Shown here: one piece after another, positions 1,556 through 37,965 of the stretch
Position numbering within the stretch: the first letter of the stretch is position 1
How the letters are laid out: each line of letters starts with the position of its first letter
Assembly (NCBI GenBank): GCA_020342115.1
Contig: CP070841.1
Span: forward strand, 3,487,531-3,525,495
Reading direction: 5' to 3'
Length of the DNA: 37,965 nt
Source of the DNA: Spirochaetota bacterium
GTDB lineage: Bacteria; Spirochaetota; B62-G9; DRHN01
Program-made: the position numbers and the translations under genes
Notes under the pieces: model-generated
What the model was told of the DNA's origin: nothing
The model's input: the letters and a program-made list of their open reading frames with translations, nothing else
The model's database searches: none

Positions 1556-2551
1556 TCAGCCTGGAACGATCCTTCCGTCGGACTCGACACGAGCTATGGA
1601 AGACAGACCTGAATACGCTGTTGCGATCACCTGAGCTTCAATGGTTTTTCCTTCATCGAGGTGGCCGCAAGTACCTTTGCTCTTTGCAGCTTCTAGGTCG
1701 TAAGGAAAGCCAGTGGATGGCTCCAGGATGGCTGTGTATAGACCGCGCCATCCTCCAAGAGCTCTGAATAGCCAAACATGTGGGAACACACTTTTCTGAA
1801 ATGTGAGTGCGAAACCTGTCATTGAGCTTCTATCAGTAGCCGCATACCAGCCCTCTTCAATATCGATCAAATAATGCATGTCTGCTGAAGCACTCTCTTT
1901 TGGAACGATCTGCCTGAGATCTGCCTTCTCTCCATTGTGGGAGATAACATAGGGCCACCTGAAACTGCGATTAGCCTGGAATCGGTCCTCACGCCATGGA
2001 TCAGTCATTCCAGTGATTGCTGGAACATCGAGCCATGTGTGGGGGGTCACTTCAAGGGCAGGATGAATATTCCAAAGAAAATCAATGGGAGTGGTACCAA
2101 GGTTCGTAAAAGAGTACATAATGCGAATGAAGGGATCTCTATTTTCTAAGCAGATCGTCTTCTCGAACCTGGTAGGCAATACCCTTCCGTGGACGATAAA
2201 ACGAACTTCACATCGATTGGCGCTTGATGTAAGGATTTCCCAGTATGTGGGCTGAGACCAGATCTCTCCATGATCGGGTAAAAGGGCACCATCAGGAGCT
2301 TTTGCAGGCAGATCGTTCGGGATAAGCTCATCCCATCCACCAGACCAGTTGTCATCAAACGATGCACCAAAGGGTTGTCGTGCAGGAAGGATATGGGGAT
2401 GATGCCATAAAAGATTACGATCTGACGGCTTATATATGAAACTGTAGATCTTTGCGCCTAACTCTGGAAGGACATCAATACACAACACTTCATTCTCTAT
2501 TCGTACTAAGCGAAGACCGTGATACTGCCAGTTAGTGTCAATTCTTGTCAT
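1556..2551 (-). CDS. Galactose mutarotase/aldose 1-epimerase-like protein
   Basis: Motifs VLPELGAKIYS, GGWDELIP, DHGEIW and WNIHPAL are typical of mutarotase-fold proteins. Confidence 0.7.
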   Translation of the reverse strand: MTRIDTNWQYHGLRLVRIENEVLCIDVLPELGAKIYSFIYKPSDRNLLWHHPHILPARQPFGASFDDNWSGGWDELIPNDLPAKAPDGALLPDHGEIWSQPTYWEILTSSANRCEVRFIVHGRVLPTRFEKTICLENRDPFIRIMYSFTNLGTTPIDFLWNIHPALEVTPHTWLDVPAITGMTDPWREDRFQANRSFRWPYVISHNGEKADLRQIVPKESASADMHYLIDIEEGWYAATDRSSMTGFALTFQKSVFPHVWLFRALGGWRGLYTAILEPSTGFPYDLEAAKSKGTCGHLDEGKTIEAQVIATAYSGLSSIARVESDGRIVPG

Positions 2552-2611
2552 CTGATAGTTTCCTATCCATTATTCATGTATCGTTGATATTCTTATAGAG
2601 GTCTCTGTGAC

Positions 2612-3421
2612 TCATTTGAATAATGTCATTGTTTTTTTAAGTGATTCTTTATGATCCATGGTAGGCCAATATTCCAGCCCAATAAGTCCTTTGTATCCTG
2701 TTTTATCGATTTCTCTGACAATATATTGATAGTTTAACTCGCAGTTAACAGGCTCATTTCTTCCGGGAACACCTGCTATATGGAAATGTCCGATATATTG
2801 AATATTTTCTTGTATAAATGAAGTAACGTTTCCCTTCATGATTTGCATATGGTAGATGTCATACAGCATTTTCGCGTTTTTATGATTTACTTCTTTTAAA
2901 ACCTTTAGAGCAATCTCGGGGTCATCCAGAAAACAATCAGGATGATCTACTTTGGTATTCCATGGTTCTAAAAGTAATGTAATGTCTTCCCTTTCGCATA
3001 TTTTCATAGTAAGCAGGAGAGTTTCGATCATGTTTTCTATTGCTTCTTCTTTACCAATATCTTTCTTTTTATTCCCACTTGCGCTTATGAGCTGTTTACA
3101 ATCCAGCTTCTTTGCAAAAGATATCATTTCTTCAAGGTTATCGAGAATTTTATTCCTGTCATGTTTATCAATCAGGGATGCCATGATGCCTCCATCCGGG
3201 TGGTTGAAGACAAAATCGGAGACTTTTAGATTAAATTTTTCATTGAGTTCTGCTATCATATCAAAGTCTTTTGGCTCATCGATCAATTTTTTGCCATCGA
3301 AACGTGCATTGTGAAACCAGAATTCGTATGATTTAAAGCCTATTCTATAGATCCTCTCTATTCGTTTTTCATAGTCGAGATCAGAAAAAAATGTTTCAAT
3401 ACACACTCCTATTTCTGACAT
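2612..3421 (-). CDS. Hydroxypyruvate isomerase-like (Hyi) TIM-barrel sugar isomerase
   Basis: Motifs LLEPWN..DHP, LYDIYHMQI, HFHIAGVPGRNEP and GLEY. Start moved to ATG 3421 (MSEIGVCIE), which has GGAGG upstream; the ORF-track extension to 3523 looks non-coding. Confidence 0.85.
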   Translation of the reverse strand: MSEIGVCIETFFSDLDYEKRIERIYRIGFKSYEFWFHNARFDGKKLIDEPKDFDMIAELNEKFNLKVSDFVFNHPDGGIMASLIDKHDRNKILDNLEEMISFAKKLDCKQLISASGNKKKDIGKEEAIENMIETLLLTMKICEREDITLLLEPWNTKVDHPDCFLDDPEIALKVLKEVNHKNAKMLYDIYHMQIMKGNVTSFIQENIQYIGHFHIAGVPGRNEPVNCELNYQYIVREIDKTGYKGLIGLEYWPTMDHKESLKKTMTLFK

Positions 3422-3556
3422 ACAGGACCTCCAGTTGCTTTGTAGATTCATTGGTAAAGTCAAAATCGGGGGTAAAAACAGTATAGCAGTTCCAATGAAC
3501 CAGTCAATTATAAATCTATGCAATAAATTAAAAATATTCAGTAAACATATTAATGT

Positions 3557-3585
3557 TTGACAAAATAATTATATTAATTAATAAT
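3557..3585 (+). promoter_or_regulatory. Putative sigma70 promoter for ABC operon 1
   Basis: TTGACA at 3557-3562, 17-bp spacer, AATAAT at 3580-3585. AAGGAGG RBS precedes ATG 3626. Confidence 0.5.
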
Positions 3586-3625: not shown

Positions 3626-4990
3626 ATGAGAAAAACAAGAATGTTTATGATTTTCTTTTTTGCCCTTGTGCTGCTCTTCTCGATTACCATTGTATTTGCT
3701 GGCAATGGAGAAGAGGAGGAAGGGACATCAGAGTCAGTGGAAAAGGGGCCTGAACCTGTAGAGCTTGTTTTCTGGTGGTGGGGCCAGCAGGAAGCACCTG
3801 GGCTCGAAGATTGGGTGAATGAAACTGTTGAGCTTTTTGAAAAGGAGTATCCCCATATCACTGTTGAGACTGTTCTCCAGGCAACTGAGAACGTGATCGA
3901 TGACTTTATTACTGCATCTGCTGCTGGAACTCCTCCTGACCTCCAGTACTTCTGGAACGGTATCTATCATCAGGAGCAGGTATGGATGGGCTACATCGAA
4001 CCTCTCAATGACTGGATCCCGGCAGAAGAGTTGAAACATATGTATGCTTCCGAGCTTTCAAACTTTCAGGGCAAACAGTACAGGGCAGGTTGGTATCTCC
4101 TTCCCATGACCTGGATTTACAACAAAAAGCTATTTAAAGAAGCGGGGGTGCCTGCGAACATGACACCTCCGAAGACCTGGGATGAGTTCATTAAGGTGTG
4201 TGAAATGCTTAAAAAAGCTGGTATCATCCCTATTGGCGCTGGTTTCAAAGATGGATGGTGGGGTGAGCACAACACAGGACATGGTCTGGTTCAACAAGAA
4301 GACCACGTTGCGGATACTACTAAACTCCTTGTCGGTGAGTATAAGTGGTCCAATCCTCGATGGCATGAGCACTGGAAGCGGCTTGAGCAACTCATAAATG
4401 CTGATTACATCAATGATGATGCGAATTCTCTTGAGCTCTATCCAGGCATGGAGCTTCTTTTAACAGGGAAATGTGCCATGACCCAGAGCATCGGGAGCTA
4501 TGTGCCTGAAGCCGAGAAACAACTTGGTGTTGAGAACGTTGGAGTAATGAAATACCCCACATTTGGCATAGGAAAGCTGGCAGAGATGCCAATAATGGAT
4601 GTTCAGGGAGTTGGTATATCTTCTCAGTCGAAGCATAAAAAGGAAGCGGCCGAGTTTATTAGATTCATGCACAGACCTGACCGTCTTACCGCAATGTGGG
4701 AGATGGTTAAAATATTTCCAGCGAATGATACCTGGGATGGGGAGAAGTATATCGAAGGACCGAATCTGCGCACAATGTGGACATGGTTTCAAGGGGAAAA
4801 CACAGCCTGGATCCCAAACATGATAGCGTGGGCCTTTGATTCAGAGGTCATGCATGTGGCTCCACAGATGATGATGACAGGAGCAACCACGGATGATATT
4901 GTAAAGCTGGCAGAGGAGGTTATTGCCCGCTGGAAAGAGGAAAATCCAGACCTTCTTGAAAGCCATAAGAAGTGGGCAGGCGTCAAGTAA
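3626..4990 (+). CDS. CUT1 (carbohydrate) ABC transporter substrate-binding protein 1
   Basis: Signal peptide ending VFAGNGEEE. SBP_bac_1-type motifs AAGTPPDL, YNKKLFKEAGV and PPKTWDEF. Confidence 0.9.
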   Translation: MRKTRMFMIFFFALVLLFSITIVFAGNGEEEEGTSESVEKGPEPVELVFWWWGQQEAPGLEDWVNETVELFEKEYPHITVETVLQATENVIDDFITASAAGTPPDLQYFWNGIYHQEQVWMGYIEPLNDWIPAEELKHMYASELSNFQGKQYRAGWYLLPMTWIYNKKLFKEAGVPANMTPPKTWDEFIKVCEMLKKAGIIPIGAGFKDGWWGEHNTGHGLVQQEDHVADTTKLLVGEYKWSNPRWHEHWKRLEQLINADYINDDANSLELYPGMELLLTGKCAMTQSIGSYVPEAEKQLGVENVGVMKYPTFGIGKLAEMPIMDVQGVGISSQSKHKKEAAEFIRFMHRPDRLTAMWEMVKIFPANDTWDGEKYIEGPNLRTMWTWFQGENTAWIPNMIAWAFDSEVMHVAPQMMMTGATTDDIVKLAEEVIARWKEENPDLLESHKKWAGVK

Positions 4991-5027
4991 GTATTATACA
5001 CTAAATAGTATTAAACTGGAGAAGAAG

Positions 5028-5048
5028 GGGGCTCTGTTTTAGAGCCCC
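5028..5048 (+). terminator. Intergenic stem-loop after SBP1 (attenuator or mRNA stabiliser)
   Basis: GGGGCTCT-GTTTT-AGAGCCCC is a perfect 8-bp stem followed by an AT-rich tail. Confidence 0.6.
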
Positions 5049-5059
5049 TTATAATTATT

Positions 5060-5932
5060 ATGATCAGATACAAATGGTGGCAGCCTCTATTGTATCTTAC
5101 GCCGATGGGACTCGCAATTCTTTTTGTGTACGGTTATCCTATTATTAGACTTTTTGATTTCTCTATGAGGAGAATCAGAGGGGCGAGTGGCCCATTTATA
5201 GGTTTTGACAACTACAGATTTGTTCTGCGAAACCCTATTTTTCAGGAAGCAGTCAGGCATAACCTGTTTCTCCTTGTCGGTGTCCCGATTCTTATTATTA
5301 TTGCCCTGATCTTTGCTTCACTGCTGTTTGAGCAGCTTAAAGGATGGAAGTTTTATCGTTTCGCATTTTTTTTACCATACATTCTTGCAGTTCCTGTGAT
5401 AGGGATTGTTTTCAGTTATCTGCTGATGCTTCATGGAGCGTTAAACGAAACTCTGAGGTTTCTTCGCCTTGATTTTCTGGCTCTTGACTGGATAGGGAGT
5501 CCAAACATTGCCTTAAAAACTCTCCTTGCTATTATAGTCTGGAAGGAGATGGGGTTTGGCATAGTGCTTTTTTTTGCTCGGCTTATGAGTGTTTCTGAAG
5601 AAATATACGATGCTGCAAAGATCGACGGTGCAAACTGGTGGCAGACGCTCTGGTATATAACAATACCACAGCTTCAAATAGTAATAGAATTCTTTGCAAT
5701 TGTAACAATAATCAACCTGCTTTCATGGATTTTCGCCTATGTCTATACGATAACAAGAGGAGGTCCAGGCACATCGACACAGGTAATGGAACTATGGATT
5801 TTTAATAAAGTGGCTCGTGGTGCACCAAATCCCGGCATGGGTGCGGCCGCTTCGGTCATACTGTTTCTTGGAACAATTGTTCTCATATTTACCCTCCTGC
5901 GACTCAGAATGAGGGTGGGAGAAGAAGAATGA
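5060..5932 (+). CDS. Carbohydrate ABC permease (MalF/UgpA-like)
   Basis: Multiple hydrophobic segments and EAA loop YDAAKIDGANWWQ. Confidence 0.92.
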   Translation: MIRYKWWQPLLYLTPMGLAILFVYGYPIIRLFDFSMRRIRGASGPFIGFDNYRFVLRNPIFQEAVRHNLFLLVGVPILIIIALIFASLLFEQLKGWKFYRFAFFLPYILAVPVIGIVFSYLLMLHGALNETLRFLRLDFLALDWIGSPNIALKTLLAIIVWKEMGFGIVLFFARLMSVSEEIYDAAKIDGANWWQTLWYITIPQLQIVIEFFAIVTIINLLSWIFAYVYTITRGGPGTSTQVMELWIFNKVARGAPNPGMGAAASVILFLGTIVLIFTLLRLRMRVGEEE

Positions 5933-6786
5933 AAGAAATGAGCAAGAGAACTGGAGTTAGTTTCGAAAGAGCTACTCAAAAGGCAATAAAGCAATTGCTG
6001 CTCATCATAGTGGCATTTATTGCCCTTTATCCACTCTACTGGTTGATCATCACTGCATTTAAGACTCAGGCAGATTACCTGGTTAACAAATTTGGCCTCC
6101 CGTGGCCAATAATGATAGGTAACATAGTAACCGCTTTAAGGGGAGGACGTTTTGCAAGATGGTTTTTAAACTCAACGATAATTACAGCAGGTTCAACACT
6201 TGCGGGAACAACAATCGCCTGCCTTGCTGCATTCGCTTTTGCAAAAATGCCCTTCAGAGGAAGCAATGCAATACTCAATTTTGTCATCTCTCTGATGGTG
6301 GTGCCTCCTGTTGTGATGATTGTACCACTCTTCATTCTTTACGCCCAGATCGGGTTTACGTCCACCTATCAGGGCATTATTGTTCTCTACGTTGGGCTTA
6401 CGATGCCTTTTTCTGTATATCTGCTCACGAACTTTTTCAAAACGATTCCTCATGATATAGTCGACTCTGCAATGATGGATGGATGCAGCCATTTTGGAAT
6501 ATTGTGGCGTATATACGTTCCCCTTTCAGCACCAGCTTTGGTAACCCTTATTATTGTCAATGCTCTCTGGATATGGAACGAACTGCTCCTCGCATTGGTA
6601 TTTCTACCAAAAGATAAGATGAGAACCCTTATGGTAGGAATAACCGCATTTAGATCGAGGCTTAACCTCGATATTCCTGTAACAATGGCTGGATTGTTGT
6701 TGAGCACATTGCCGATGATAATACTCTATGTTGTTTTTCAGCGATTCTTTATCCGTGGACTCACCGCTGGTGCAACAAAAGGCTGA
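5929..6786 (+). CDS. Carbohydrate ABC permease (MalG/UgpE-like)
   Basis: EAA loop DSAMMDGCS and C-terminal QRFFIRGLTAGATKG. ATGA overlap with the upstream permease. Confidence 0.92.
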   Translation: MKEMSKRTGVSFERATQKAIKQLLLIIVAFIALYPLYWLIITAFKTQADYLVNKFGLPWPIMIGNIVTALRGGRFARWFLNSTIITAGSTLAGTTIACLAAFAFAKMPFRGSNAILNFVISLMVVPPVVMIVPLFILYAQIGFTSTYQGIIVLYVGLTMPFSVYLLTNFFKTIPHDIVDSAMMDGCSHFGILWRIYVPLSAPALVTLIIVNALWIWNELLLALVFLPKDKMRTLMVGITAFRSRLNLDIPVTMAGLLLSTLPMIILYVVFQRFFIRGLTAGATKG

Positions 6787-6880: not shown

Positions 6881-7993
6881 GTGAAGTTTAAAGCTTCTAC
6901 CTTTGAAGAGAGAATTTTAAGTGTACAGTATCAATTGAGAACACAGGAGCTGAAAGGTGCGGTAATTTCAAATGCTGAAAATATTTTTTATTTATCAGGT
7001 CATCTTATCGGTGAAGGGTCTGGGCCTTCAATACTTTATATACCGGCAGAAGGTAAAGCAATTTTAACGGTTTCAGAATCGGAAGCTTCTCTACCAGGGA
7101 TAGAACATTTTCCTGGAATCATTTTTCCATATAAAGCAAAAGATTCTGAAGATAACAGCTCAGCGCTAGCACTATCATGCTTTAAAAATGAATATGCTGA
7201 GTTTGTGTCGCTCCCACTTGGAATTGAAGCCGGTACAATATCGTTTAGAAGTGCTGAAATTCTGGGCATCACTACAGATAGAGATTGGTTTGAAATTGAT
7301 CCAACGGTTTCACATATGCGCATGATAAAGGATGCAGATGAAATAGAACATATGAGGTCCGTAGTAAAAATATCCGATCTTGGACAGCAAAAAGCTAGAG
7401 AAGTTTTAGAGGAGGGTATAAGCGAGATCGAACTTCAGGCCGCATGCCGACATGTGATGGAAATTGAAGCAGGAATTCCTATAGAAATGAAGGCTGATGT
7501 TCTTTTCGGTTCGAGGACAGTGCTTATCGGAGGGCCTGCCGGTGTGGCCGGAAGATATAGAGCTGTAGAGGGGAATCTAGCTATAGTCGACCTCCTCCCT
7601 CGAGTTGAAGGATATTACGCTGATACCACGCGCACTCTCTGGTGTGGACCAAAGCCTCTCAAAAAAGAAAAGATTATGAATGATCTTTTTTCAGTTAAGG
7701 CTGAACTTGAAAAAATGCTTAAACCAGGTGTGGAAGCCGCGGTCCTTGATGGGATCGCGAGGAGCAAGCTCTCAAAAGTCGGTTCTTTTCCTCACCATAC
7801 AGGACACGGTATTGGAATCTCCTCATTTGAGGCTCCATTTATAACTCCAGATTCTCACTATGTACTTGAAGAAGGAATGACCATTACACTCGAGCCCGGA
7901 GTCTATTTTGAAGAATGGGGTGCGAGGATAGAAGATGATTACCTGATAACGAAACATGGCTTTGAAAGGCTTTCAGAATCATCGGAGGTTTGA
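6881..7993 (+). CDS. M24 family metallohydrolase (Xaa-Pro peptidase/creatinase-like)
   Basis: Creatinase_N-like N-domain (NIFYLSG). Metal ligands present: D..GYYADTTRT, HHTGHGIG, LEPGVY, RIEDD. Confidence 0.88.
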   Translation: MKFKASTFEERILSVQYQLRTQELKGAVISNAENIFYLSGHLIGEGSGPSILYIPAEGKAILTVSESEASLPGIEHFPGIIFPYKAKDSEDNSSALALSCFKNEYAEFVSLPLGIEAGTISFRSAEILGITTDRDWFEIDPTVSHMRMIKDADEIEHMRSVVKISDLGQQKAREVLEEGISEIELQAACRHVMEIEAGIPIEMKADVLFGSRTVLIGGPAGVAGRYRAVEGNLAIVDLLPRVEGYYADTTRTLWCGPKPLKKEKIMNDLFSVKAELEKMLKPGVEAAVLDGIARSKLSKVGSFPHHTGHGIGISSFEAPFITPDSHYVLEEGMTITLEPGVYFEEWGARIEDDYLITKHGFERLSESSEV

Positions 7994-7995
7994 AG

Positions 7996-9027
7996 ATGAG
8001 TTCTACCTGTAGAGCTGTAGTGTGGAAAGGCAAAGGTCATCTCGAAGTAGTAGAGAGACAAATCCCCAAACCCGATCCAAAAATGGTACTTTTAAAAGTC
8101 AGGGCTGCGGGTATATGCGGGACTGATCTTCACATACTTTCCGGTACACATCCACACGCGCACCCCCCTCTGGTTCCTGGTCATGAGTTTGCAGGTGAAG
8201 TTTATAAGATAGGCAAAGGGGTTGATAAAAAATTAATTGGAGCACGGGTTGGATCAGATTCTTATGTAGGGTGCGGTGAATGTATGTACTGCCGCTCTAA
8301 GAAGACACAGCTCTGTGAGAAGGGAACGCGTGAGCTTGGGGTTAATATTGACGGGGGTTGGACAGAGTATCTAACAGTGCCAGTTGAAAACCTCTATTTA
8401 ATTCCTGAAAACGTTGATTTTACAGACGTAGGGGCTGGCTGTATATTGAACTGTCCCATGGCTGCTGTAGAAAGTGTGAAGATCAATCCATCTGATATGG
8501 TTGTTATAATTGGTGACGGGCCTTCAAGTCTGGTCATGATTCAGCTTGCTAGGTTAAAGGGAGCATCAAAAGTGATTATTGCCGGTCATAGAGAGAGAAG
8601 GCTTTCGCTTGCACTTGAGTTTGGAGCTGACCATGTGATTAATACATATGAAAATGATTTGATCGAATTCATCAGTGAACTTGGCAGTGCCCCTCAGGTA
8701 GTTATCGATGCTGTTGGAAAAGCAGAAACAGTTGGGATGGCACTTACTATTGCCGAACGTGAGGGGAGGGTTCATCTTTTTGGCTTACCAGAAGGCCCCT
8801 TAAACAATATCTCAATGGATATACTATTGTGGAAGGAGATCACTTTAACAGGATCTACCGGGGCTCCAGGTCTCTGGCCTCCTGTGATGGAGTTGCTATC
8901 TAGGGGATACCTTAAGGTTGCACCAATAATAAGCCACCGATTCAGAATCGAGGAGGCTCCCAAAGCAATAGAGTTTATAAATGATAATCCGAAGCAAGTA
9001 ATCAAGGCAATATTTGAAATGCAATAG
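7996..9027 (+). CDS. Zn-dependent medium-chain (sorbitol/threonine-like) dehydrogenase
   Basis: Motifs GICGTD, GHEFAG and structural Zn CGECMYC..C. ATG 7996 lies 7 nt after GGAGG. Confidence 0.9.
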   Translation: MSSTCRAVVWKGKGHLEVVERQIPKPDPKMVLLKVRAAGICGTDLHILSGTHPHAHPPLVPGHEFAGEVYKIGKGVDKKLIGARVGSDSYVGCGECMYCRSKKTQLCEKGTRELGVNIDGGWTEYLTVPVENLYLIPENVDFTDVGAGCILNCPMAAVESVKINPSDMVVIIGDGPSSLVMIQLARLKGASKVIIAGHRERRLSLALEFGADHVINTYENDLIEFISELGSAPQVVIDAVGKAETVGMALTIAEREGRVHLFGLPEGPLNNISMDILLWKEITLTGSTGAPGLWPPVMELLSRGYLKVAPIISHRFRIEEAPKAIEFINDNPKQVIKAIFEMQ

Positions 9028-9064: not shown

Positions 9065-9901
9065 GTGAGACTTAGCTGTCTGCCAGTATCATATTTTGGA
9101 AAGATTATTACGGGAGAGATGTCTGTTAAACAGTGGGCCATACAGGCAGCAGAAGTAGGTCTTGATGCAATAGATTTGAGTATCCTTTTTTTTAAGGATA
9201 AGGATCCGTCATATTTTTTTAAAATAGGAAGCGAAATTAGGACTTTAGGGATAGAGCTGGCTATTTTAAACACATATCCTGACCTAACTCATCCAAATGC
9301 ATCCGAAAGAAGGAAGCAACTATCTCAACTTGAAAAGGACATTGCCATTGCAAAAACACTGGGTGCCAAAATGGTCAGAGTAACAGCCGGGCAGGCACAT
9401 CCAGAAACATCCAGGAAATATGGCATCAGGTGGGCAATTGACGGTCTCATGCAGTCTCTTGATATAGCAAATGATTATGGAATAAAACTTGTATATGAAA
9501 ATCATTCAAAACCAGGCTGCTGGGATTATCCGGACTTTTCACATCCTTCAGATATATTTTTAGAAATAGTAAAAGGTATAACAGGAACAAACATAGGTGT
9601 ACTTTTTGATACTGCAAATCCTATTGCATATGGGGATGATCCCTTGCCTCTCCTTGAAGAAGTAATTGATATTGTAACCTGTATTCATGCAGCCGATACG
9701 AAAAGATTGGGGGCTCTGGAACCAGTTCCATTAGGTACAGGGCTGGTTCCTTTTCTTGATATTTTCAACACATTAAAACTCTCTGGTTTTAACGGGTTGA
9801 TAAGCATTGAAGAAGCAAGCGGTCTCGGAAAACATGGAGTTGTGAATGCCGTAGAGTACATAAGGAAGGTATGGGAGAATGCGAAGGAAGACAATGAATA
9901 A
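9065..9901 (+). CDS. Sugar phosphate isomerase/epimerase (xylose-isomerase-like TIM barrel)
   Basis: Metal-binding pattern YENH, FDTAN, IHAAD, LGTGLV and SIEE. Confidence 0.85.
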   Translation: MRLSCLPVSYFGKIITGEMSVKQWAIQAAEVGLDAIDLSILFFKDKDPSYFFKIGSEIRTLGIELAILNTYPDLTHPNASERRKQLSQLEKDIAIAKTLGAKMVRVTAGQAHPETSRKYGIRWAIDGLMQSLDIANDYGIKLVYENHSKPGCWDYPDFSHPSDIFLEIVKGITGTNIGVLFDTANPIAYGDDPLPLLEEVIDIVTCIHAADTKRLGALEPVPLGTGLVPFLDIFNTLKLSGFNGLISIEEASGLGKHGVVNAVEYIRKVWENAKEDNE

Positions 9902-15663: not shown

Positions 15664-15679
15664 GTCATGCAATTACCTC

Positions 15680-29346: not shown

Positions 29347-30603
29347 ATGCCTGGACCAGGGTCGTATTTAATCGGTGAAGAAGAAAAACAAGCACTAATG
29401 GAAGTCATTGATGCTGGATCTCTTTTTCGTTATGGAGACCGGTCTGATCCAAAGTTCCTTGCAAAGGTTTGGCAGCTTGAGAAGGAGGTTTCGAAGCGTT
29501 TTAATATTAAATATGCAGTGGCGATGAATTCCGGCACATCTGCACTATGGATCGCACTCGGAGCACTCGGTATAGGCCCTGGAGATGAAGTAATAGTGCC
29601 TGGATACACGTTTATTGCATCCATCACATCTGTAATCTATGCGAGGGCTGTTCCTGTGCTTGCAGAAGTAGATGAGACCCTTGACCTGGATCCCGAAGAT
29701 GTTAAAAAGAAAATAACACCACGAACAAAGGCAATTATACTTGTACACATGCTCGGTAATCCGGGCCGCATAGATGAGATTAAGAAGATTGCTCGAGAAA
29801 ATAATCTGAATCTAATAGAGGATTGTGCGCAGGCTTTCGGGGCGCAGTACAAGAGGAAATATGCTGGTAACTACGGGGATATTGGAACATACAGTTTTAA
29901 CATATTTAAAACGATCACATGCGGCGATGGAGGAATGATCGCGACAAATAACGAAGAACTGTATAAGCGTTCATTCGCCATACATGATCAGGGGCATCTT
30001 CCACTGAGGCAGGGAGTTGAGCAGGGATCGAGAACAGTGATTGGTCTCGACTTCAGAATGACAGAGCTCTCGGCTGCTGTTCTTCTTGTGCAATTGAAAC
30101 GGATTGATGATATCAAAAGAAGATTAAAGCAAATGAAGCAGAGGTTCAAGGATGGAATCAAAGATATGAACGGGCTTGCTTTTCGAGCATTGCCAGATCC
30201 TGAAGGTGAGCTTGGAACTATCCTTACTGTTTTTATGCCGGATGAAGGTATAGCGAGGAAGGTGGGGAATGAACTTGGAGGTGGAGTAGTTGCGGACTCT
30301 GGATGGCATGTTTACAATAATATGGAGCATATCCTCGGGAAGAAGGTCGTAGATAGCGTGGGCTGTCCCTTTACATGCCCGTATTATACTAAAAGTGGAG
30401 GAAATGTTGAATATTTCAAAGGAATGCTTCCAAAGACAGATTCCCTGATAAACAGGGCGATAAATATCAGCATCGGTGTTTTTGATAAGGGTTTAGGCTC
30501 TGGATTTGGAGTTACCATTGAAAGTACTGACGATGAAATTGATCAAGCGATCGACAGGTTCAGGAAAGTTGTGGGTAAATATCTTGGGGGTGTTAACTCA
30601 TGA
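29347..30603 (+). CDS. DegT/DnrJ/EryC1/StrS family PLP aminotransferase #2
   Basis: Motifs NSGTSAL, PGDEVIVPGYTFIAS, EDCAQA and PLP Lys in SFNIFKTITCGDGG. Confidence 0.92.
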   Translation: MPGPGSYLIGEEEKQALMEVIDAGSLFRYGDRSDPKFLAKVWQLEKEVSKRFNIKYAVAMNSGTSALWIALGALGIGPGDEVIVPGYTFIASITSVIYARAVPVLAEVDETLDLDPEDVKKKITPRTKAIILVHMLGNPGRIDEIKKIARENNLNLIEDCAQAFGAQYKRKYAGNYGDIGTYSFNIFKTITCGDGGMIATNNEELYKRSFAIHDQGHLPLRQGVEQGSRTVIGLDFRMTELSAAVLLVQLKRIDDIKRRLKQMKQRFKDGIKDMNGLAFRALPDPEGELGTILTVFMPDEGIARKVGNELGGGVVADSGWHVYNNMEHILGKKVVDSVGCPFTCPYYTKSGGNVEYFKGMLPKTDSLINRAINISIGVFDKGLGSGFGVTIESTDDEIDQAIDRFRKVVGKYLGGVNS

Positions 30604-31742
30604 TCATGGTAGGAGTTATAGGAACCGGTTATATGGGCACGATTCACCTGGAAGCTTTATCGAGGGTCGGGGGTGTTAAGGTAAAGTCTGTGTGTGATGT
30701 CAACCTTGAGCTGGCAAAAGCTTCTTCTCAAAGGTACAATATTGAGAATGCATACGATGATCTTAAGAAGATTATAGATGATAATGAGATTGAAGTTATT
30801 CATAACTGTGCGCCAAATAAATACCATTACTCCATAACAAAAGCGGCTCTTGAGAGAGGAAAGCACATATTATCTGAAAAGCCTCTAGCTATGACATTAG
30901 AGGATGGCGATGACCTTGTAGAGCTGGCACAAAAAAAGGGTGTAATAACAGGAGTCGATTTTTGTTATCGGTATTACCCGTTGGTGCAGGAAATGGCTGT
31001 CAGAGTGAGGAGAGGGGATCTTGGAGATGTGAGACTGGTAATGGGATCCTATTTGCAGGACTGGCTATCCAGGCCTACTGATTATTCATGGAGATTAGAG
31101 AAATCGGAGTGTGGTGACTCAAATATTACAGCTGACGTAGGCAGTCATTGGTTTGATCTGATTCAGTTTGTTACAGGATTAAAGGTAACCGAGGTTATAG
31201 GTGATTTAGCGACCATTATCCCAATAAGGAAGCGCCCAAAACGCCAGGTGCTTGCTTTTGAAGAGGTGAAGGATGTAGAAACTGAGGATTTCAAGGTAGA
31301 ACTTGAGGAATATTCATCTGTACTGTACAGACTTTCGAATGGGGCTCCTGGTTCATTTACCACTTCACAAGTTTGTGCAGGGAGAAAATCGGATACTGAG
31401 TTTCAGATTTACGGAAGCAAATGTTCTTATGCGTGGAACCATAAAAGGTCAAATGAGATGTGGATAGGATACAGGGAAAAGGCAAATGAGATTTTAATAG
31501 AAAACCCGATACTTCAACAAGACAATACGTCTAAATATGCAACACTCCCGGCAGGACATCCGTTAGGCTACCATGATGCGGTGCTTAATCTATTCAATGA
31601 TTTCTATGATATTGTGAAGCATAATAAAGAGACATCAGCGATATCAAGACCGACATTTGAGACCGGATACGATGAAATTAAAATAACAGATGCTATTCTG
31701 ATGAGTAATAGAAAAAGGCAATGGGAAAAAATACAATGGTAA
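30600..31742 (+). CDS. Gfo/Idh/MocA family NAD(P) oxidoreductase
   Basis: Rossmann motif GTGYMG, plus SEKPLA and DVGSHWFD. ATGA overlap with DegT #2. Confidence 0.92.
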   Translation: MIMVGVIGTGYMGTIHLEALSRVGGVKVKSVCDVNLELAKASSQRYNIENAYDDLKKIIDDNEIEVIHNCAPNKYHYSITKAALERGKHILSEKPLAMTLEDGDDLVELAQKKGVITGVDFCYRYYPLVQEMAVRVRRGDLGDVRLVMGSYLQDWLSRPTDYSWRLEKSECGDSNITADVGSHWFDLIQFVTGLKVTEVIGDLATIIPIRKRPKRQVLAFEEVKDVETEDFKVELEEYSSVLYRLSNGAPGSFTTSQVCAGRKSDTEFQIYGSKCSYAWNHKRSNEMWIGYREKANEILIENPILQQDNTSKYATLPAGHPLGYHDAVLNLFNDFYDIVKHNKETSAISRPTFETGYDEIKITDAILMSNRKRQWEKIQW

Positions 31743-31796: not shown

Positions 31797-33242
31797 ATGG
31801 TATTTTTTATTGAAAAATTAACAAGACCAACGGTGTTGAATAATGAAGAAATTTTAAAAATCCATGAGAATTCACTGAAAGTGTTGGAAGATACCGGGAT
31901 GTATATAGATAACGACGAGGTATTGAAGACGTGCCTTGACATGGGATTGAATGCAGAACTCAACAAGAAGATTGTAAAATTTCCTCGTGATGTTGTTGAA
32001 AAAAGTTTACAGAGTATTCCCAAGGAAATAAAACTGTATAATCGTTCAGGTGATCTGGCTACGGAGTTGGGAAGAGTCAAAGGTAACTTTACAAGCGGCC
32101 ATAATGCAATTTATGTATATGATTATGATACCAATGAGAGAAGAAATGCCACAAAAGATGATGTAGGTAAATTCGCAGTATTATCAGACTATCATCCAGA
32201 TATCGATATCGTAGGAATTCAGGCTATGCCTCAGGATGTCAAAGCAGAATCTTCTCTTGTACATGCTGTGGATGCAGTGTTTAATAACACTGAAAAACAT
32301 ATCTTTTTTTCTCCTGAGAGAGCAGAAGTTGCTGATGCAATTTTTAATATTGCAGAAGTAGCGACAGACAGCAGCGACCTGGGTGGCAGGTCTCCTCTGA
32401 CCTGCCAGTTATCACCGACATCACCCCTGACATGGGAAAAAGGTGCAATCGAAGCACTGAGTTCAACAGTAAAAAAGGGAGTGCCTCTGTGCCTTCTTCC
32501 ACAGCCATTTACCGGGGTTACTTCTCCATATACTTTAGCCGGGCACATCACAATACATAATGCAGAAACCCTTTCAGGTATTGTTTTCAGTCAGCTGATT
32601 AATCCAGGGTCTGCTGTCATTTATGGAAGCGCCTGGTCCACTTTTGATATGAGAACGGCCAATGTATTGATCGGTTCACCCGAAACAGTGCTATTGAGAA
32701 TAGCGGGATCACAGATGGCTGAGTTTTATCACATACCTTATCATACTATTGCTCCTGACACTGACGCACACATAATGGATGAACAGCTGGCCTGGGAAAA
32801 ATTTGCAACTACGTGGGGTGCATATCTTGCAGATTCGGACCTCATAGTGAATGGGGGTTTATATAGTACCGGGCTCACTGTGAGCTTTGAACAATTGATA
32901 TTGGATAGTGAAATGGTTTCGTATATAAAAAGACTGTTCCGCGGTATTAAAGTAGATGATGATACACTCGCACAGGATGTAATTGAAAAACTCGGACCGA
33001 GGGGTAACTACCTGGCAGATGAACATACACTGATGCATCTCGGTCAAGGAGAACACTGGGAGCCAATGGTATCGACGAGGGAAATATATGAAAATTGGAA
33101 GACAAAGGGAATGAAAGACATTGTGCATAAGGCTCATGAGAAGGCAACCTCAATAATGGAGAATCACAGAGTGAGTGAGCTTTCGGATAACAAGAGAAAA
33201 GAGATCGTAAAAATAATTGATAATTTTGAGAGCAGTATATGA
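31797..33242 (+). CDS. mttB: Non-pyrrolysine MttB-family methyltransferase #5
   Basis: Motifs SPTSPLTW, TSPYTLAG, HNAETLSG, DTDAHIMDEQLAWEK and GPRGNYL. Confidence 0.92.
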   Translation: MVFFIEKLTRPTVLNNEEILKIHENSLKVLEDTGMYIDNDEVLKTCLDMGLNAELNKKIVKFPRDVVEKSLQSIPKEIKLYNRSGDLATELGRVKGNFTSGHNAIYVYDYDTNERRNATKDDVGKFAVLSDYHPDIDIVGIQAMPQDVKAESSLVHAVDAVFNNTEKHIFFSPERAEVADAIFNIAEVATDSSDLGGRSPLTCQLSPTSPLTWEKGAIEALSSTVKKGVPLCLLPQPFTGVTSPYTLAGHITIHNAETLSGIVFSQLINPGSAVIYGSAWSTFDMRTANVLIGSPETVLLRIAGSQMAEFYHIPYHTIAPDTDAHIMDEQLAWEKFATTWGAYLADSDLIVNGGLYSTGLTVSFEQLILDSEMVSYIKRLFRGIKVDDDTLAQDVIEKLGPRGNYLADEHTLMHLGQGEHWEPMVSTREIYENWKTKGMKDIVHKAHEKATSIMENHRVSELSDNKRKEIVKIIDNFESSI

Positions 33243-33283: not shown

Positions 33284-33925
33284 ATGCAACCAACAATAGA
33301 AACTCTACGAAAGGCGATCCAAGAATATAACAGTGGGCTGGCCTTGAAAACAGCACAAGAGATTGTAGATCAAAAGATTGATCCACTTGTTGCCATTAAT
33401 GCAATGACTGAGACTATCAGAGAAATAGGTGAAGCTTTTGGGCAGGGAAAATTATGGTTGCCTGACCTTGTTGGAGCTTCAGATGCGATGCAGGCTGCGT
33501 TACCGGTATTGGATGAAGAGATACAAAGAAGGGGTGAGCATAGAGATACGAGAGGTGTGGTCATTGTTGGCGCTGTATTCGGTGATATACACAGTATTGG
33601 CAAGACGATGGTTGCAGCACTGCTGACAGCATCCGGATTTCAAGTGGAAGATTTAGGTGTTAACATTCAATCAGAGCAATTTATTGAGGCAATAAAGAGC
33701 CACAATGCAGATATTCTGGCAATGTCCGCACTCATGACGACAACCATTGCGGAGCAAAAGAAGGTAATTGAAGTGCTTAAAGAAACAGGCCTGAGGGAAA
33801 AGGTAAAAGTTATGGTTGGAGGAGCAGCAGTAACCGAGGAGTTTGCAAAAGATATTGGGGCTGATGGATATGATCCTACTGCACCGGGTGCTGTAGAGCT
33901 TGCAATGAAACTGATCGGAAAATAA
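33284..33925 (+). CDS. Methyltransferase cognate corrinoid (B12-binding) protein, MttC/MtbC-like
   Basis: Cap domain (IGEAFGQG..LPDLV), DxHxxG motif (GDIHSIG), SALMTTT and VMVGGAAVT..IGADGY. Confidence 0.95.
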   Translation: MQPTIETLRKAIQEYNSGLALKTAQEIVDQKIDPLVAINAMTETIREIGEAFGQGKLWLPDLVGASDAMQAALPVLDEEIQRRGEHRDTRGVVIVGAVFGDIHSIGKTMVAALLTASGFQVEDLGVNIQSEQFIEAIKSHNADILAMSALMTTTIAEQKKVIEVLKETGLREKVKVMVGGAAVTEEFAKDIGADGYDPTAPGAVELAMKLIGK

Positions 33926-34001: not shown

Positions 34002-35450
34002 ATGTTGAGAGGCTTTGAACGTAAAATTAAACCTATGGATATAGTATCCGCACGCGAGGTTGAACAGATACACAAAGAAACCCTAAAGGTCCTTGAGCGA
34101 ACAGGTATAAACTTTCTGCATCAAAATAGCCTCGAGCTCATGAAGGATGGAGGCTGCAGCGTAGATTCTGATACAAAAAGGGTTAAAATCCCAGGCTGGC
34201 TGGTTGAAGAATGCATTAAGAAAACTCCAGGCAGCTTCGAGTTAAAGGCTAGGGATCGAAAGAATGATTTGAACGTTGGAGGGAATAGGCTATACTACCT
34301 TGCTGGTGCTGGAATGAGAATTGCAGACCTGGATACTTGGGAGGCTAGAGCAGCAACGCTGAAAGAATTGGATGAGGCTACAGTTGTCAATGATGCGCTT
34401 GACAGTGTGCATCTCGTTGCTGATACAGGACCCTATACGGATATCGTTGACGTGCCTCCTATTATGGCTTCACTGTTTGATATTGCAAGTCATCTCAGGA
34501 ATACGACAAAGATCACAATTGTTGATAACGGCAACAATTATGAGACCTTTCACATAAAAATGGCAGAGGTTGTGGGTTGCGACATGCTCCCCTTTATAGG
34601 TTCATCGGCACCTCTGACTTATGATGAAGCGACATGTGAAGCAGTTTTCAGATATTCAGAAGTCAGTTTTCCCTTCTTCCTGATAAGCAGTGATATGATG
34701 GGAGGTACTAGCCCTGCTACTATAGCTGGATCCTTGGTTACGACGAATGCCGAGATACTGGCAGGAGTAGTATTGATTCAGTTATTGAAACCTGGGACCG
34801 GGATAATAGCGGGAGATTATGCAATGCCACTGGATATGCGATCCGGACATCCATGTTTTTGCGATCTGGGCTCAGCGCTCCATACCGCGGCATTTACCCA
34901 GATAATGCGCAGGTATGATATACCAGCGTTTGCAAACTGTCCTGGCATGAGCAGTTCAAAAGAAATAGATGTTCAATCCGGTTATGAGAGGGCTATGTCA
35001 ACTCTTGCAGCTGCGTTATTCGGAGCACATATGATTGTTCTTCACGGTACGATCTATGGTGAGTATTCTTATCACCCTGTAGGGGCAGTACTGGATGATG
35101 ATATAGCTACCTGGGCAGGACGTATGATTGAGGGATTTTATGTGAATAAAGAAACTCTTGCCGGAGATCTCATTGATGAGGTTGGACCTATCCCCGGCTC
35201 GTTTCTTAACACTCCACACACGAGAAAATGGTGGAAGAGTCAACGATTCATGCCCAAAACAGCTGATAGGTTGTCATATCCTGAGTGGATGAAGGCTGAC
35301 AAAAAAACCGCCATAGAGTACGCAAAGGACAGAGTGGAAGAAATACTTTCCTCACACAGGGTGCCTCCTTTAGCGAAAGACCAGGATGAGGAAATAAATA
35401 ACATTTTAAAAGAGGCTCAGGAATATTACAAAAAGAAAGGCTTGCTGTAA
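34002..35450 (+). CDS. mttB: Non-pyrrolysine MttB-family methyltransferase #6
   Basis: Motifs MGGTSPATIAG, NAEILAG, LDMRSG, SSKEIDVQSGYER and VGPIPGSFL. Confidence 0.92.
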   Translation: MLRGFERKIKPMDIVSAREVEQIHKETLKVLERTGINFLHQNSLELMKDGGCSVDSDTKRVKIPGWLVEECIKKTPGSFELKARDRKNDLNVGGNRLYYLAGAGMRIADLDTWEARAATLKELDEATVVNDALDSVHLVADTGPYTDIVDVPPIMASLFDIASHLRNTTKITIVDNGNNYETFHIKMAEVVGCDMLPFIGSSAPLTYDEATCEAVFRYSEVSFPFFLISSDMMGGTSPATIAGSLVTTNAEILAGVVLIQLLKPGTGIIAGDYAMPLDMRSGHPCFCDLGSALHTAAFTQIMRRYDIPAFANCPGMSSSKEIDVQSGYERAMSTLAAALFGAHMIVLHGTIYGEYSYHPVGAVLDDDIATWAGRMIEGFYVNKETLAGDLIDEVGPIPGSFLNTPHTRKWWKSQRFMPKTADRLSYPEWMKADKKTAIEYAKDRVEEILSSHRVPPLAKDQDEEINNILKEAQEYYKKKGLL

Positions 35451-36679: not shown

Positions 36680-36721
36680 CAGAATTATTCTGATATGAAG
36701 TAGAGGGGTTTAAAATTTCGA

Positions 36722-37585
36722 ATGAAAAAATCGAAAAGATCTAAAATACCAAGCTCATATGTTCTTGGTATACCAATCTCTATATGGCTAATAATACTTG
36801 TAATAACTCCTGTAATACTGATGTTTATCATGGGTTTTAGATTAAAAGAGGGATACGATGTAACAGATACCTTTACACTGGCAAACTATATGCAGTTTGC
36901 CAAGAACCCTTCATACTGGAAAGTGTTACTGAAAACTTTCAGAATGTCTCTTACAGTTTCGTGCTGTGCAATTTTACTTTCATATCCTCTTGCCTATTTT
37001 GTCTCCAGAAAAATGAAAAAATTTAAAGAATTGCTGTTCATGTTAATAATCATACCCTTGTGGGTTAGTTATCTGGTCAGAATAATTGCCTGGAGGACCA
37101 TTCTGGGAAACAGGGGGTTAATTAACACTTTATTGATGACAGTTGGATTGACCAATGAACCTTTGAAATTCTTTTTATATAATGAAATTGCCGTTGTTAT
37201 CACTTTAACGTATATCGCGGTTCCCTTTGTATTTATCCCATTGTATACAGTATTGGAAAAGATACCTAAAAATTTGCTTGATGCATCGAATGATCTTGGA
37301 GCAAATGAATTCAGAACTTTTTTGAATGTTATACTTCCTATATCCAGTCCTGGACTGCTTACTGGATTTATGCTTTCATTTTTAATTGCATTGGGCGACT
37401 ATATTATACCTGCGCAACTGGGTGGATCTAGAGGAATGATGTTCGGGAATATTGTCTGGTCCCAATTTGGGTTTGCATCAAATTGGCCCATGGGATCGGT
37501 AATGGGTTTCGTTTTATTCTTTATTGCCGCTATTATTTTAGCAATCAGTCAAAAATTCGGCTATAGACAGGGAACAATAGAATGA
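36722..37585 (+). CDS. potB: Polyamine ABC permease, PotB-like
   Basis: Motifs PLWVSYLVRIIAW, DASNDLGA, LGDYIIPAQLGG and NWPMGS. Confidence 0.85.
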   Translation: MKKSKRSKIPSSYVLGIPISIWLIILVITPVILMFIMGFRLKEGYDVTDTFTLANYMQFAKNPSYWKVLLKTFRMSLTVSCCAILLSYPLAYFVSRKMKKFKELLFMLIIIPLWVSYLVRIIAWRTILGNRGLINTLLMTVGLTNEPLKFFLYNEIAVVITLTYIAVPFVFIPLYTVLEKIPKNLLDASNDLGANEFRTFLNVILPISSPGLLTGFMLSFLIALGDYIIPAQLGGSRGMMFGNIVWSQFGFASNWPMGSVMGFVLFFIAAIILAISQKFGYRQGTIE

Positions 37586-37610
37586 AGCTGTGTCTTTATA
37601 AGGATAAAAA

Positions 37611-37965
37611 TTGAAACAAATTAAAGAGAAAAGCAAAGAGTCGCGATCCCCATTTTTGAAAATTTATACAATACTAATTTATCTATTTCTCTATCTGCCA
37701 CTTTTTGTAGTATTAATTTTTTCTTTCAGCCCTTCAAAAACTATATATGGAATGTCTGGTTTGACACTCAACTGGTATGGTAAACTGTTTTCTGATCGTG
37801 GATTATTACTATCACTCTTGCACTCTCTTGAGGTTAGTATTATTGCCGTTAGTATTGCGATAGTTTTAGGGACATTTGGAGCGTTCTTCCTTGTAAGAGT
37901 TAAATTTCCGGCCAAAGGGCTCTTTACTACTATTTGTCGATTGCCTCTTGTATTGCCAGGAATCA
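37611..37965 (+). CDS. potC: Polyamine ABC permease, PotC-like, 3'-truncated (absent from ORF track)
   Basis: TTG 37611 after AAGGA. Reads MKQIKEK..YLFLYLPLFVVLIFSF..GLTLNWY..LPLVLPGI and stays open to the window end. Confidence 0.85.
   Translation, partial: MKQIKEKSKESRSPFLKIYTILIYLFLYLPLFVVLIFSFSPSKTIYGMSGLTLNWYGKLFSDRGLLLSLLHSLEVSIIAVSIAIVLGTFGAFFLVRVKFPAKGLFTTICRLPLVLPGI

Follow-up and report, generated by a model that had tools for sequence, protein, structure and literature searches.

MttB-type methyltransferase genes in a conserved sugar-type gene context of a sediment Spirochaetota bacterium: a candidate link between corrinoid-dependent methyl removal and amino-sugar catabolism

Introduction

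Corrinoid-dependent demethylation by non-pyrrolysine (non-Pyl) MttB systems has been described in Desulfitobacterium hafniense and Eubacterium limosum (MtgB, MtpB, MtcB, MtyB and MthB; MtqC/MtqA/RamQ). First methyltransferases of the same superfamily are encoded by six genes, MttB1 to MttB6, in a cluster of about 36 kb that we analyzed in the genome of an uncultured Spirochaetota bacterium from anoxic sediment (GenBank assembly GCA_020342115.1, contig CP070841.1, positions 3,487,531 to 3,525,495; this stretch of 37,965 nt is referred to as the window). With somewhat more confidence than doubt we propose that in this Wood-Ljungdahl-positive organism the corrinoid-dependent removal of methyl groups is built into the catabolism of amino sugars, aminocyclitols or amino-polyols. 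As in D. hafniense and E. limosum, there is a separate small corrinoid protein with a cap domain and a DxHxxG motif, many MttB paralogs face few corrinoid proteins, the activase and the tetrahydrofolate methyltransferase are encoded elsewhere, and the host possesses the Wood-Ljungdahl pathway (PMC8604678; here and below, the cited papers are drawn on for the parts available to us). The characterized non-Pyl MttBs, however, use acidic quaternary amines and remove one methyl group (PMC12155760, PMC13080624), whereas the genes of the window reside in operons with aminotransferases, sugar-type dehydrogenases, isomerases and CUT1 importers.

Other known systems share part of this composition. The methanogen MttB-MttC-MtbA system likewise combines the gene of an MttB-family enzyme with those of a corrinoid protein and a UroD-family partner, but the six MttB genes of the window lack a pyrrolysine codon, and the host is a bacterium in which coenzyme M is not expected. 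Moreover, one of the three UroD-fold proteins of the window, UroD2, exhibits His/Asp/His in place of the His/Cys/Cys of MtaA, and each UroD pairs, in the relatives, with a particular MttB. DegT-family aminotransferases beside Gfo/Idh/MocA dehydrogenases and xylose-isomerase-like TIM barrels are found with KdnA/KdnB, NtdA/NtdC (kanosamine), the inosose aminotransferases and the rhizopine (moc) genes. Systems of the KdnA/NtdA type are mostly biosynthetic and do not contain corrinoid methyltransferases; O-demethylation of rhizopine in rhizobia uses an oxygenase. Since the DegT and Gfo genes of the window lie with importers, they are probably to be read in the catabolic direction. Finally, the corrinoid O-demethylases of acetogens (a UroD-fold first methyltransferase, a pterin-type second methyltransferase and an activase) resemble the window in that UroD-fold proteins are encoded together with corrinoid machinery, and a cluster of UroD and pterin-binding genes is also present in the host genome, at 1.62-1.63 Mb. 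They act on aryl methyl ethers, whereas the window offers a sugar-type context, and scans with Pfam and NCBIfam revealed no pterin-binding gene in it.

A preliminary description of this DNA, made from the sequence alone, had named no described pathway with such a composition. This agrees with the literature that we searched (openly accessible, subscription journals lying outside), in which we did not find a link between MttB genes and the catabolism of sugars or amino sugars. Within the available text of one paper, MttB of Spirochaetota is mentioned only with regard to mercury methylation (PMC12484752), and a bathyarchaeal "MtgB" of approximately 300 amino acids (aa) is reported, in the accessible part of another, to lack homology to known first methyltransferases (PMC10989822). 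The machinery of the window is of a known kind; its gene context and the implied substrate class are new.

Active sites of the MttB paralogs

All six MttB proteins (Table 1) matched PF06253 with 258-341 bits, at a cut-off of 25, and covered approximately the profile positions 22-498 (for MttB3, see Table 1). A profile built from the six proteins identified MtgB (409 bits) and MttB (385 bits) in the PDB. None of the genes exhibits an in-frame stop and hence a pyrrolysine codon, so that they belong to the non-pyrrolysine branch. They are deep paralogs, MttB2 to MttB6 being only 27-31% identical to MttB1 (MttB2: 30%). In pairwise comparisons MttB1 reached 255 bits with MtgB (9yce) and 213 bits with the Methanosarcina MttB, and among 1.84 billion cluster representatives at 50% identity it has one relative at 66%, followed by proteins at 43% or less. 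For thousands of MttB-family proteins we know of no substrate.

In MtgB, glycine betaine is bound by a tetrad, in which Y97 and F356 are the cation-pi partners and R312 and H348 the carboxylate partners; R312 is reported to be conserved in all MttB members of known function, all of which use acidic quaternary amines (PMC13080624). In pairwise, multiple and profile alignments, the R312 column, which is anchored by an invariant proline two residues earlier, reads R, V, H, H, H and F from MttB1 to MttB6, while G, A, F, H, H and A occupy the Y97 column. At the remaining tetrad positions MttB1 has G97, a gap at H348 and E355 at F356, the latter within a stretch N-E-T-E-N that is invariant in three orthologs. 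The profile alignment of all six places H348 and F356 on non-His and non-aromatic consensus columns, the alignment of this loop (approximately 345-356) being less secure than that of the R312 column. Unlike MtgB, the MttBs of the window therefore do not possess the full set of glycine-betaine-binding residues: the tetrad is retained in none of them, and an equivalent of the conserved arginine is present in MttB1 only and absent from the other five. Judged by these residues, none of the six is an MtgB. A clustering with betaine or carnitine enzymes, which the preliminary description had named as the outcome that would contradict it, was not found; MtgB and MttB were compared directly and the other enzymes through the reported arginine.

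Conservation of the gene neighborhoods

To what extent the MttB genes are linked to their neighbors was studied by mapping the proteins of the window onto 22 loci with an MttB1 ortholog (63-75% identity). In each of the 16 loci with sufficient sequence (at least ~400 nt) before MttB1, the immediately preceding gene encodes a cupin, and in all 14 loci extending far enough a class III aminotransferase gene precedes the cupin-MttB1 pair. Orthologs of the Zn-dependent dehydrogenase (Zn-ADH; 59-65%) and of TIM barrel 2 (53-63%) were found in 8 and 10 MttB1 loci, respectively, and both together in 8. Just downstream of MttB1, UroD2 orthologs (77-82%) are located in six loci. The permeases of CUT1 module A (83-87% and 71%) precede the array from the M24 gene to MttB1 in two loci (L001, L017), which, like L006, have retained the M24 gene. 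The MttB1 module also occurs in a Planctomycetes-labelled metagenome-assembled genome (MAG; L002) and on a contig with planctomycete-type DUF1559/N_methyl proteins (L007), where genes for a transaldolase/FSA, an aldehyde dehydrogenase and an SMP-30 lactonase are inserted. Further MttB1 loci add genes for DUF4432, tagaturonate epimerase, phosphoglycerate kinase and more UroD-like proteins; full DUF4432 genes adjoin MttB1 or DegT2 orthologs in L006, L049 and L050. The solved relatives of the class III aminotransferase are omega-, putrescine-, gamma-aminobutyrate- and taurine-transaminases.

The other parts of the window were also recovered elsewhere. MttB4, DegT1 and UroD3 follow each other in the same order in L051/L061 (73%, 77% and 70% identity). 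The order SBP_B (83%), PermB1 (83%), PermB2 (75%) and MttB3 (75%) is kept in L138, where MttB6 comes next. A UroD1 ortholog (62%) resides beside the MttB5 ortholog in L139, MttB5 and MttB6 are adjacent in L139 and L140, and an ortholog of the isochorismatase-like gene (71%) adjoins MttB6 in L144. L145 harbors a paralogous cluster composed of CUT1, UroD, UroD, MttB6-like, Gfo, DegT, CUT1 and UroD genes. Of the 16 other genomes in the family, 13 contain a match to DegT2 at E<=1e-60. From 521 candidate stretches, 388 relatives of DegT2 were obtained and 80 loci kept, of which 16 contain a Gfo-like and 23 a PermB1-like gene. In five loci (L049, L052, L064 of Latescibacter, L101 and L127), DegT2 orthologs have the gene of the 470-aa isomerase-like protein as a neighbor. 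DegT2 and MttB5 are adjacent in L047, L048 and L063; MttB5 orthologs were detected through the DegT2 loci and the sister genomes, and a search of species-representative genomes by peptide patterns yielded only relatives with 35% identity or less. The data indicate that MttB and sugar genes have not come to lie together by chance, and that the linkage to transport and sugar-type genes, whose conservation the preliminary description had left to be checked, does extend to other genomes.

KdnA-like relatives of DegT2 with 54-66% identity (L055-L134) are widespread, their sources including Promethearchaeota (Asgard), Caldilineaceae, Anaerolineae, Latescibacterota and Terriglobia, and genes for CUT1 permeases and Gfo-like proteins are frequent neighbors. 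A strong expansion marks the MttB6 subfamily in the order, where single genomes contain as many as 6 matches at E<=1e-110 (39-52% identity).

Related clusters without MttB genes

In two loci of other Spirochaetales, L100 (7398-20474) and L122 (9458-20260), orthologs of DegT2 (58%), Gfo (65-69%), DegT1 (72-76%) and the TIM barrel HypIsoTIM (59-68%) are clustered, HypIsoTIM adjoining DegT1 in both. The clusters furthermore contain a CUT1 system, a ROK protein, xylose-isomerase-like TIM barrels (two annotated in L100), a creatininase-family amidohydrolase and a PIG-L-family de-N-acetylase; no MttB gene was detected in them by tblastn. By their gene families they look like clusters for the catabolism of N-acylated amino or diamino sugars. 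The family of the window possesses the same DegT/Gfo/TIM/CUT1 core, with MttB and UroD genes where L100 and L122 carry deacylases. Because the same core occurs either with N-deacylases or with MttB/UroD genes, the MttBs may remove an N-substituent from an amino-sugar-like compound, and this exchange is the strongest indication of such a function.

The kinship of the DegT2 aminotransferase was also determined. Its best solved relative is KdnA (5k8b), an 8-amino-Kdo transaminase, with 283 bits versus 176 bits for the next. Scyllo-inosose and 2-deoxy-scyllo-inosose aminotransferases scored 148-153 bits and NtdA 118 bits. KdnA acts on a free sugar and not on a nucleotide sugar.

Corrinoid protein and UroD-fold proteins

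The corrinoid protein of the window matched PF02607 (43 bits), PF02310 (95 bits) and TIGR02370 (187 bits, cut-off 215). Its motif D101-x-H103-x-x-G106 is intact, and D101, H103 and G106 are invariant in nine paralogs. As the genome encodes approximately 11 corrinoid proteins for 40 MttB matches, it is plausible that one corrinoid protein is shared by several MttBs, as had been suggested in the preliminary description.

One may ask whether the MttB- and UroD-fold proteins of these sugar clusters are TIM-barrel enzymes that have taken on a different reaction instead of corrinoid-dependent methyl transfer. No corrinoid gene was detected in the MttB1 ortholog loci, UroD2 is devoid of cysteines at the two cysteine positions of MtaA, and UroD-like genes occur in DegT2 loci lacking corrinoid or MttB genes. 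Nevertheless, we give this explanation the least credence of all, since the corrinoid protein with its intact DxHxxG motif is encoded between MttB5 and MttB6, all six MttBs align with nearly the whole MttB profile at the scores given above, and the Planctomycetes MAG with the MttB1 ortholog has a B12-binding_2 protein. In E. limosum, MttB genes are also encoded apart from the shared corrinoid protein (PMC8604678).

MtaA (4ay7) was the only solved methyltransferase related to UroD2. In a profile alignment with MtaA, UroD2 and its orthologs show H-S-D for H-I-C and P-T-H-N for P-G-C-G, by which both cysteines are replaced. The His/Cys/Cys residues of MtaA at these positions are, as we assume, thiol-activating zinc ligands. 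The NCBIfam models of MtaA gave 63-75 bits, at cut-offs of 235-400. In the relatives, UroD2 is paired with MttB1, UroD3 with MttB4-DegT1 and UroD1 with MttB5. Because a generic methyl-corrinoid:acceptor enzyme needs no such pairing, we favor a substrate-specific role of the UroD-like proteins, perhaps the removal of a second methyl group. The preliminary label "UroD/MtaA-fold" thus holds as regards the fold, whereas a generic MtaA-like function appears doubtful given the specific pairing and, in UroD2, the replaced cysteines.

The UroD-like proteins might even be the principal enzymes. In that case O-methyl sugars or cyclitols from algal, plant or cell-wall compounds would be demethylated by UroDs acting as ether-cleaving methyltransferases, the MttBs would contribute a minor N-demethylation, and the aminotransferases would serve a keto-/amino-sugar shunt. 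At the His/Asp/His site of UroD2 a thiolate would fit less well than an oxygen ligand, provided that the zinc ligands of MtaA are as we assume. UroD-like genes accompany DegT2 and DUF4432 without MttB in L049, L050 and L052, some of the 34 URO-D matches of the genome adjoin corrinoid or pterin-binding genes, and the Gfo dehydrogenase, Zn-ADH and TIM barrels show sub-threshold matches to IolG, IolM and IolO. The UroD superfamily does include O-demethylases (PMC10418091). On the other hand, the tightest conserved triad consists of aminotransferase, cupin and MttB1, without UroD, and in the literature searched corrinoid-dependent cleavage was not found for alkyl methyl ethers of sugars, as opposed to aryl ethers. 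We therefore consider O-methyl compounds unlikely as the main substrates, albeit less so than the other alternatives.

Methyl-group machinery of the host genome

The genome consists of a single contig of 3.53 Mb with 40 PF06253 matches, from which ~0.4 matches per 38 kb would be expected, compared to six in the window. The window is the largest cluster of MttB, UroD and corrinoid genes in the genome. In addition to the URO-D matches and small corrinoid proteins mentioned above, two RACo-type activases, three pterin-binding proteins besides a probable FolP, and acetyl-CoA synthase are encoded. This inventory characterizes the organism as a methyl-group specialist with a Wood-Ljungdahl pathway. 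Of the 14 class III or DegT aminotransferase genes in the whole genome, 6 are located at most 3 kb from an MttB-like gene; among 10,000 random placements, only 2 gave as many as six. Outside the window the count is 3 of 11.

Some adjacency is expected, though, in a genome so crowded with MttB genes, and the MttBs of the window might be ordinary demethylases of quaternary amines (betaines, choline derivatives or carnitine-type compounds) that merely stand beside sugar operons. MttB6 adjoins a Pot-type amine transporter and the corrinoid protein gene, other MttB loci of the genome contain corrinoid and Pot-like genes only, and MttB1 has kept the equivalent of R312. This explanation does not account for the conserved synteny with aminotransferase, cupin, Zn-ADH and TIM-barrel genes, which includes Planctomycetes-labelled DNA, nor for the overlaps of start and stop codons within the arrays. 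It is also at odds with the lack of the arginine in the other five MttBs, with the drop in identity beyond the nearest representative of MttB1, and with the rarity of the aminotransferase adjacency in random placements. We regard it as quite unlikely.

Elsewhere in the genome, the UroD/pterin-binding cluster (G000:C1:1623731-1632714) comprises three UroD-like genes and a pterin-binding gene and resembles the O-demethylase clusters of acetogens. Two full-length MttB matches (G000:C1:2369093-2370496 and 3009842-3011251) contain a single in-frame TAG, as in pyrrolysine-type trimethylamine methyltransferases, and both lie near corrinoid protein genes. DNA nearly identical to the whole stretch or parts of it is present in seven DNA runs of sediment metagenomes from three studies; no RNA run was among the sequencing runs listed as containing the stretch.

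Gene inventory and organization of the window

Comparison of 34 open reading frames (ORFs) of the window with Pfam and NCBIfam confirmed the gene content of the cluster (Table 1). The preliminary inventory was borne out with regard to the six MttB paralogs, the single corrinoid protein, the three proteins of UroD/MtaA fold, the two sugar-type (CUT1) ABC modules, the three aminotransferases and the two dehydrogenases. Instead of four isomerase/epimerase-like enzymes there are five, namely the DUF4432-like protein, two xylose-isomerase-like TIM barrels, the cupin and the SftI/AraA-like protein, and two hydrolases, M24/creatinase-like and isochorismatase-like, had been missed. Ten co-directional ORFs, never more than 94 nt apart, make up the region 3626-14591 and show three stop/start overlaps of 4 nt, one of them between the M24 and Zn-ADH genes. 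The M24 protein yielded weak matches below cut-off to PepQ, ectoine hydrolase and DddP in NCBIfam, and Zn-ADH stayed below the cut-offs of the models that it matched (YdjJ-like, threonine dehydrogenase and IolM-like). An ectoine-like reading of the M24, class III aminotransferase and cupin genes may also be considered; ectoine hydrolase models reached only 30-47 bits at cut-offs of 575-613, and the cupin matches Cupin_2 and AraC_binding only. The SftI/AraA-like protein of 470 aa has no solved relative that could be identified by sequence.

Table 1. Features of the window (positions of the 37,965-nt stretch) and the matches on which their assignment is based
Feature	Position	Strand	Matches and remarks
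DUF4432-like (aldose-epimerase-like) protein	1556..2551	-	partial PF14486 match, 34 bits
Xylose-isomerase-like TIM barrel HypIsoTIM (hydroxypyruvate/oxo-tetronate isomerase-like)	2612..3523	-	PF01261 122 bits; TIGR03234 165 bits, below cut-off
CUT1 module A	3626..6786	+	solute-binding protein SBP_A 3626-4990 (SBP_bac_1); permeases 5060-5932 and 5929-6786 (BPD_transp_1)
M24/creatinase-N hydrolase	6881..7993	+	PF00557 135 bits; PF01321
Zn-dependent alcohol/polyol dehydrogenase (Zn-ADH)	7990..9027	+	ADH_N and ADH_zinc_N
Xylose-isomerase-like TIM barrel 2	9065..9901	+	PF01261 127 bits
Class III (omega-type) aminotransferase	9923..11272	+	PF00202 299 bits; NF005685 486 bits, cut-off 485
Small cupin, 125 aa	11269..11646	+	Cupin_2 60 bits; start overlaps aminotransferase stop by 4 nt
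MttB1	11704..13140	+	PF06253 341 bits
MttB2	13155..14591	+	PF06253 300 bits
UroD1	14602..15672	-	URO-D 44 bits
114-aa ORF upstream of UroD1	15716..16060	-	no Pfam or NCBIfam match
CUT1 module B	16197..19527	+	SBP_B 16197-17525; permeases 17639-18520 (PermB1) and 18685-19527 (PermB2)
Isochorismatase-family hydrolase	19540..20268	-	PF00857 108 bits
MttB3	20326..21600, probably to 21732	-	PF06253 286 bits; match begins at profile position 75 if translated from GTG at 21600
UroD2	22267..23370	+	URO-D 97 bits
MttB4	23573..25000	+	PF06253
DegT1 aminotransferase	25058..26356	+	DegT family, Pfam
UroD3	26443..27582	+	URO-D family, Pfam
Aldose-ketose isomerase-like (SftI/AraA-like) protein, 470 aa	27705..29117	+	NF048012 (sulfoquinovose isomerase) 81 bits, below cut-off
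DegT2 aminotransferase	29347..30603	+	DegT family; 4-nt overlap with Gfo gene
Gfo/Idh/MocA dehydrogenase	30600..31742	+	levoglucosan dehydrogenase model 192 bits and IolG 112 bits, both below cut-off
MttB5	31797..33242	+	PF06253
Corrinoid protein	33284..33925	+	B12-binding and B12-binding_2 domains
MttB6	34002..35450	+	PF06253
PotABC-like genes	PotA 35573-36679, PotB 36722-37585, PotC from 37611	+	PotC ORF ends 156 nt past window

Both CUT1 modules comprise an SBP_bac_1 protein and two BPD_transp_1 permeases, and neither has its own ATPase gene; shared ATPases are common among CUT1 importers. The only ABC ATPase gene of the window is the PotA-like gene (386 bits, cut-off 482). The best solved relatives of SBP_A are all binders of sugars or oligosaccharides, led by NagB2 with 73 bits. 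Of the transporter that had been described as PotABC-like, PotA-, PotB- and PotC-like genes are indeed present, but the PotC ORF (37611-37965 and L135:1142-1651) encodes only 169 aa versus 277 aa in the relative L048. No gene for a binding protein of the PotD/PotF type follows PotC, the next genes being convergent and unrelated. In L048 a complete Pot module (PotD-like binding protein, PotA, PotB and the 277-aa PotC) is located between the MttB5 and Gfo orthologs.

The sugar-type importers could also take up conjugates of a known quaternary amine with a sugar or glycerol (glycerophosphocholine-like or betaine-lipid head groups, glycosylated or acylated betaines). After import by CUT1 the hydrolases would split them, leaving the betaine moiety to the MttBs and the remainder to the sugar enzymes. 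The relatives of the binding proteins would fit such ligands, the M24 and isochorismatase-like hydrolases lie inside the arrays, and MttB1 retains the arginine that pairs with the acidic group in MtgB (PMC13080624). We think this even less probable than plain quaternary amines, since the aminotransferases beside three different MttBs would be left unexplained, the known products of betaine demethylation not being transaminase substrates, and no gene for a glycoside hydrolase, phosphodiesterase or lipase was found in the window with Pfam and NCBIfam.

Housekeeping genes flank the cluster on both sides. Those upstream encode seryl-tRNA synthetase, EF-P and a TPR protein; downstream, a cNMP/TPR protein is encoded together with an amidohydrolase and a sigma factor. 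A mobile island was rejected as an explanation because of the even GC content (0.38-0.45), the housekeeping flanks and an MttB3 ortholog at the same EF-P/TPR site of a sister genome. In this genome (L143, G010:C122, 7269-12228) the EF-P and TPR genes are directly followed by the MttB3 ortholog and an isomerase-like gene, by which the same chromosomal site carries a different, smaller gene set. The reading frame of MttB3 is open upstream of the GTG at 21600 for 44 codons, up to an ATT at 21732 that lies 9 nt after AAGGAG, and the MttB3 ortholog of another genome (G007) has a GTG at the position aligned with this ATT. Hence, translation of MttB3 probably begins at the ATT, which would be either a rare start codon or a weakened start.

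Discussion

From the gene families, the operon-like packing, the synteny, the divergence of the active sites and the remaining machinery of the genome we infer the substrate class, the order of steps, the methyl route and the role of the UroDs as follows. The compound would be taken up by the CUT1 importers, in relatives also by a complete Pot-type importer. From conjugates, the M24 or isochorismatase-like amidohydrolase may liberate the amine. An MttB paralog would then demethylate the nitrogen, passing one or more methyl groups to the corrinoid protein in its Co(I) form, and the exposed primary amine would be converted to an aldehyde or ketone by the adjacent aminotransferase (class III with MttB1, DegT1 with MttB4 and DegT2 with MttB5). 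The resulting keto sugar would be channeled into central metabolites by Zn-ADH or the Gfo dehydrogenase together with the TIM-barrel, cupin or AraA-like isomerases. From the corrinoid protein the methyl group would pass to tetrahydrofolate and into the acetyl-CoA pathway, for which the genome encodes activases and pterin-type methyltransferases outside the window. Each UroD-like protein, acting with a particular MttB, may remove a second methyl group (O- or N-linked) or may be a dedicated second methyltransferase.

Candidate substrates are N-methylated amino sugars, aminocyclitols and related amino-polyols or amino-sugar acids; cyclitols remain among them because of the sub-threshold matches to IolG, IolM and IolO. 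The suggestion of a different substrate class in the preliminary description has gained partial support from the conserved linkage to sugar and transport genes, from the five MttBs without the arginine and from the sister clusters with N-deacylases.

Several observations weigh against our proposal. To our knowledge, demethylation of a secondary or tertiary amine to the primary amine is without precedent in the non-Pyl MttB branch, and we do not know N-methylated amino sugars as abundant compounds of sediments. The substrate of MttB1 may be acidic, since the R312 equivalent is retained; by this residue a hydroxylated omega-amino acid or a sugar acid may fit as well as a neutral sugar. The MttB1 loci are partly non-independent, as the genome of L001 is a member of the family to which the window belongs, and as L002 and L011, and likewise L006 and L017, are similar to each other. 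The link of DegT2 to MttB5 appears lineage-specific because only 3 of the 80 kept DegT2 loci have an MttB5 ortholog, and for MttB2 the 19 other genomes of the order yielded nothing at E<=1e-110. Outside the window the ortholog loci, including those of sister genomes, revealed no gene for a corrinoid protein, and the Pot module looks degenerate in this genome. Moreover, all characterized non-Pyl MttBs use quaternary amines with an acidic group (PMC12155760, PMC13080624).

A more specific idea is advanced only tentatively, since we doubt it more than we trust it. A branch of the MttBs, working in fixed pairs with UroDs, might demethylate protonated secondary or tertiary N-methyl amines on sugar or cyclitol skeletons down to the primary amine, and in MttB1 the carboxylates of the N-E-T-E-N stretch might replace the aromatic cage. 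If so, the fully demethylated product could be deaminated by the neighboring aminotransferase, and the reaction would be an oxygen-free counterpart of N-deacetylation that feeds acetogenesis in sediment Spirochaetota and Planctomycetes.

The conserved context of several MttB subfamilies provides concrete, testable candidates for a new substrate class and suggests a complete oxygen-free N-demethylation. Should the proposed catabolism be confirmed, it would represent a new route for the mineralization of methylated amino sugars or aminocyclitols in anoxic sediments, a role would be assigned to many UroD-fold proteins of non-methanogens, and the breakdown of carbohydrates would be tied to acetogenesis driven by methyl groups.

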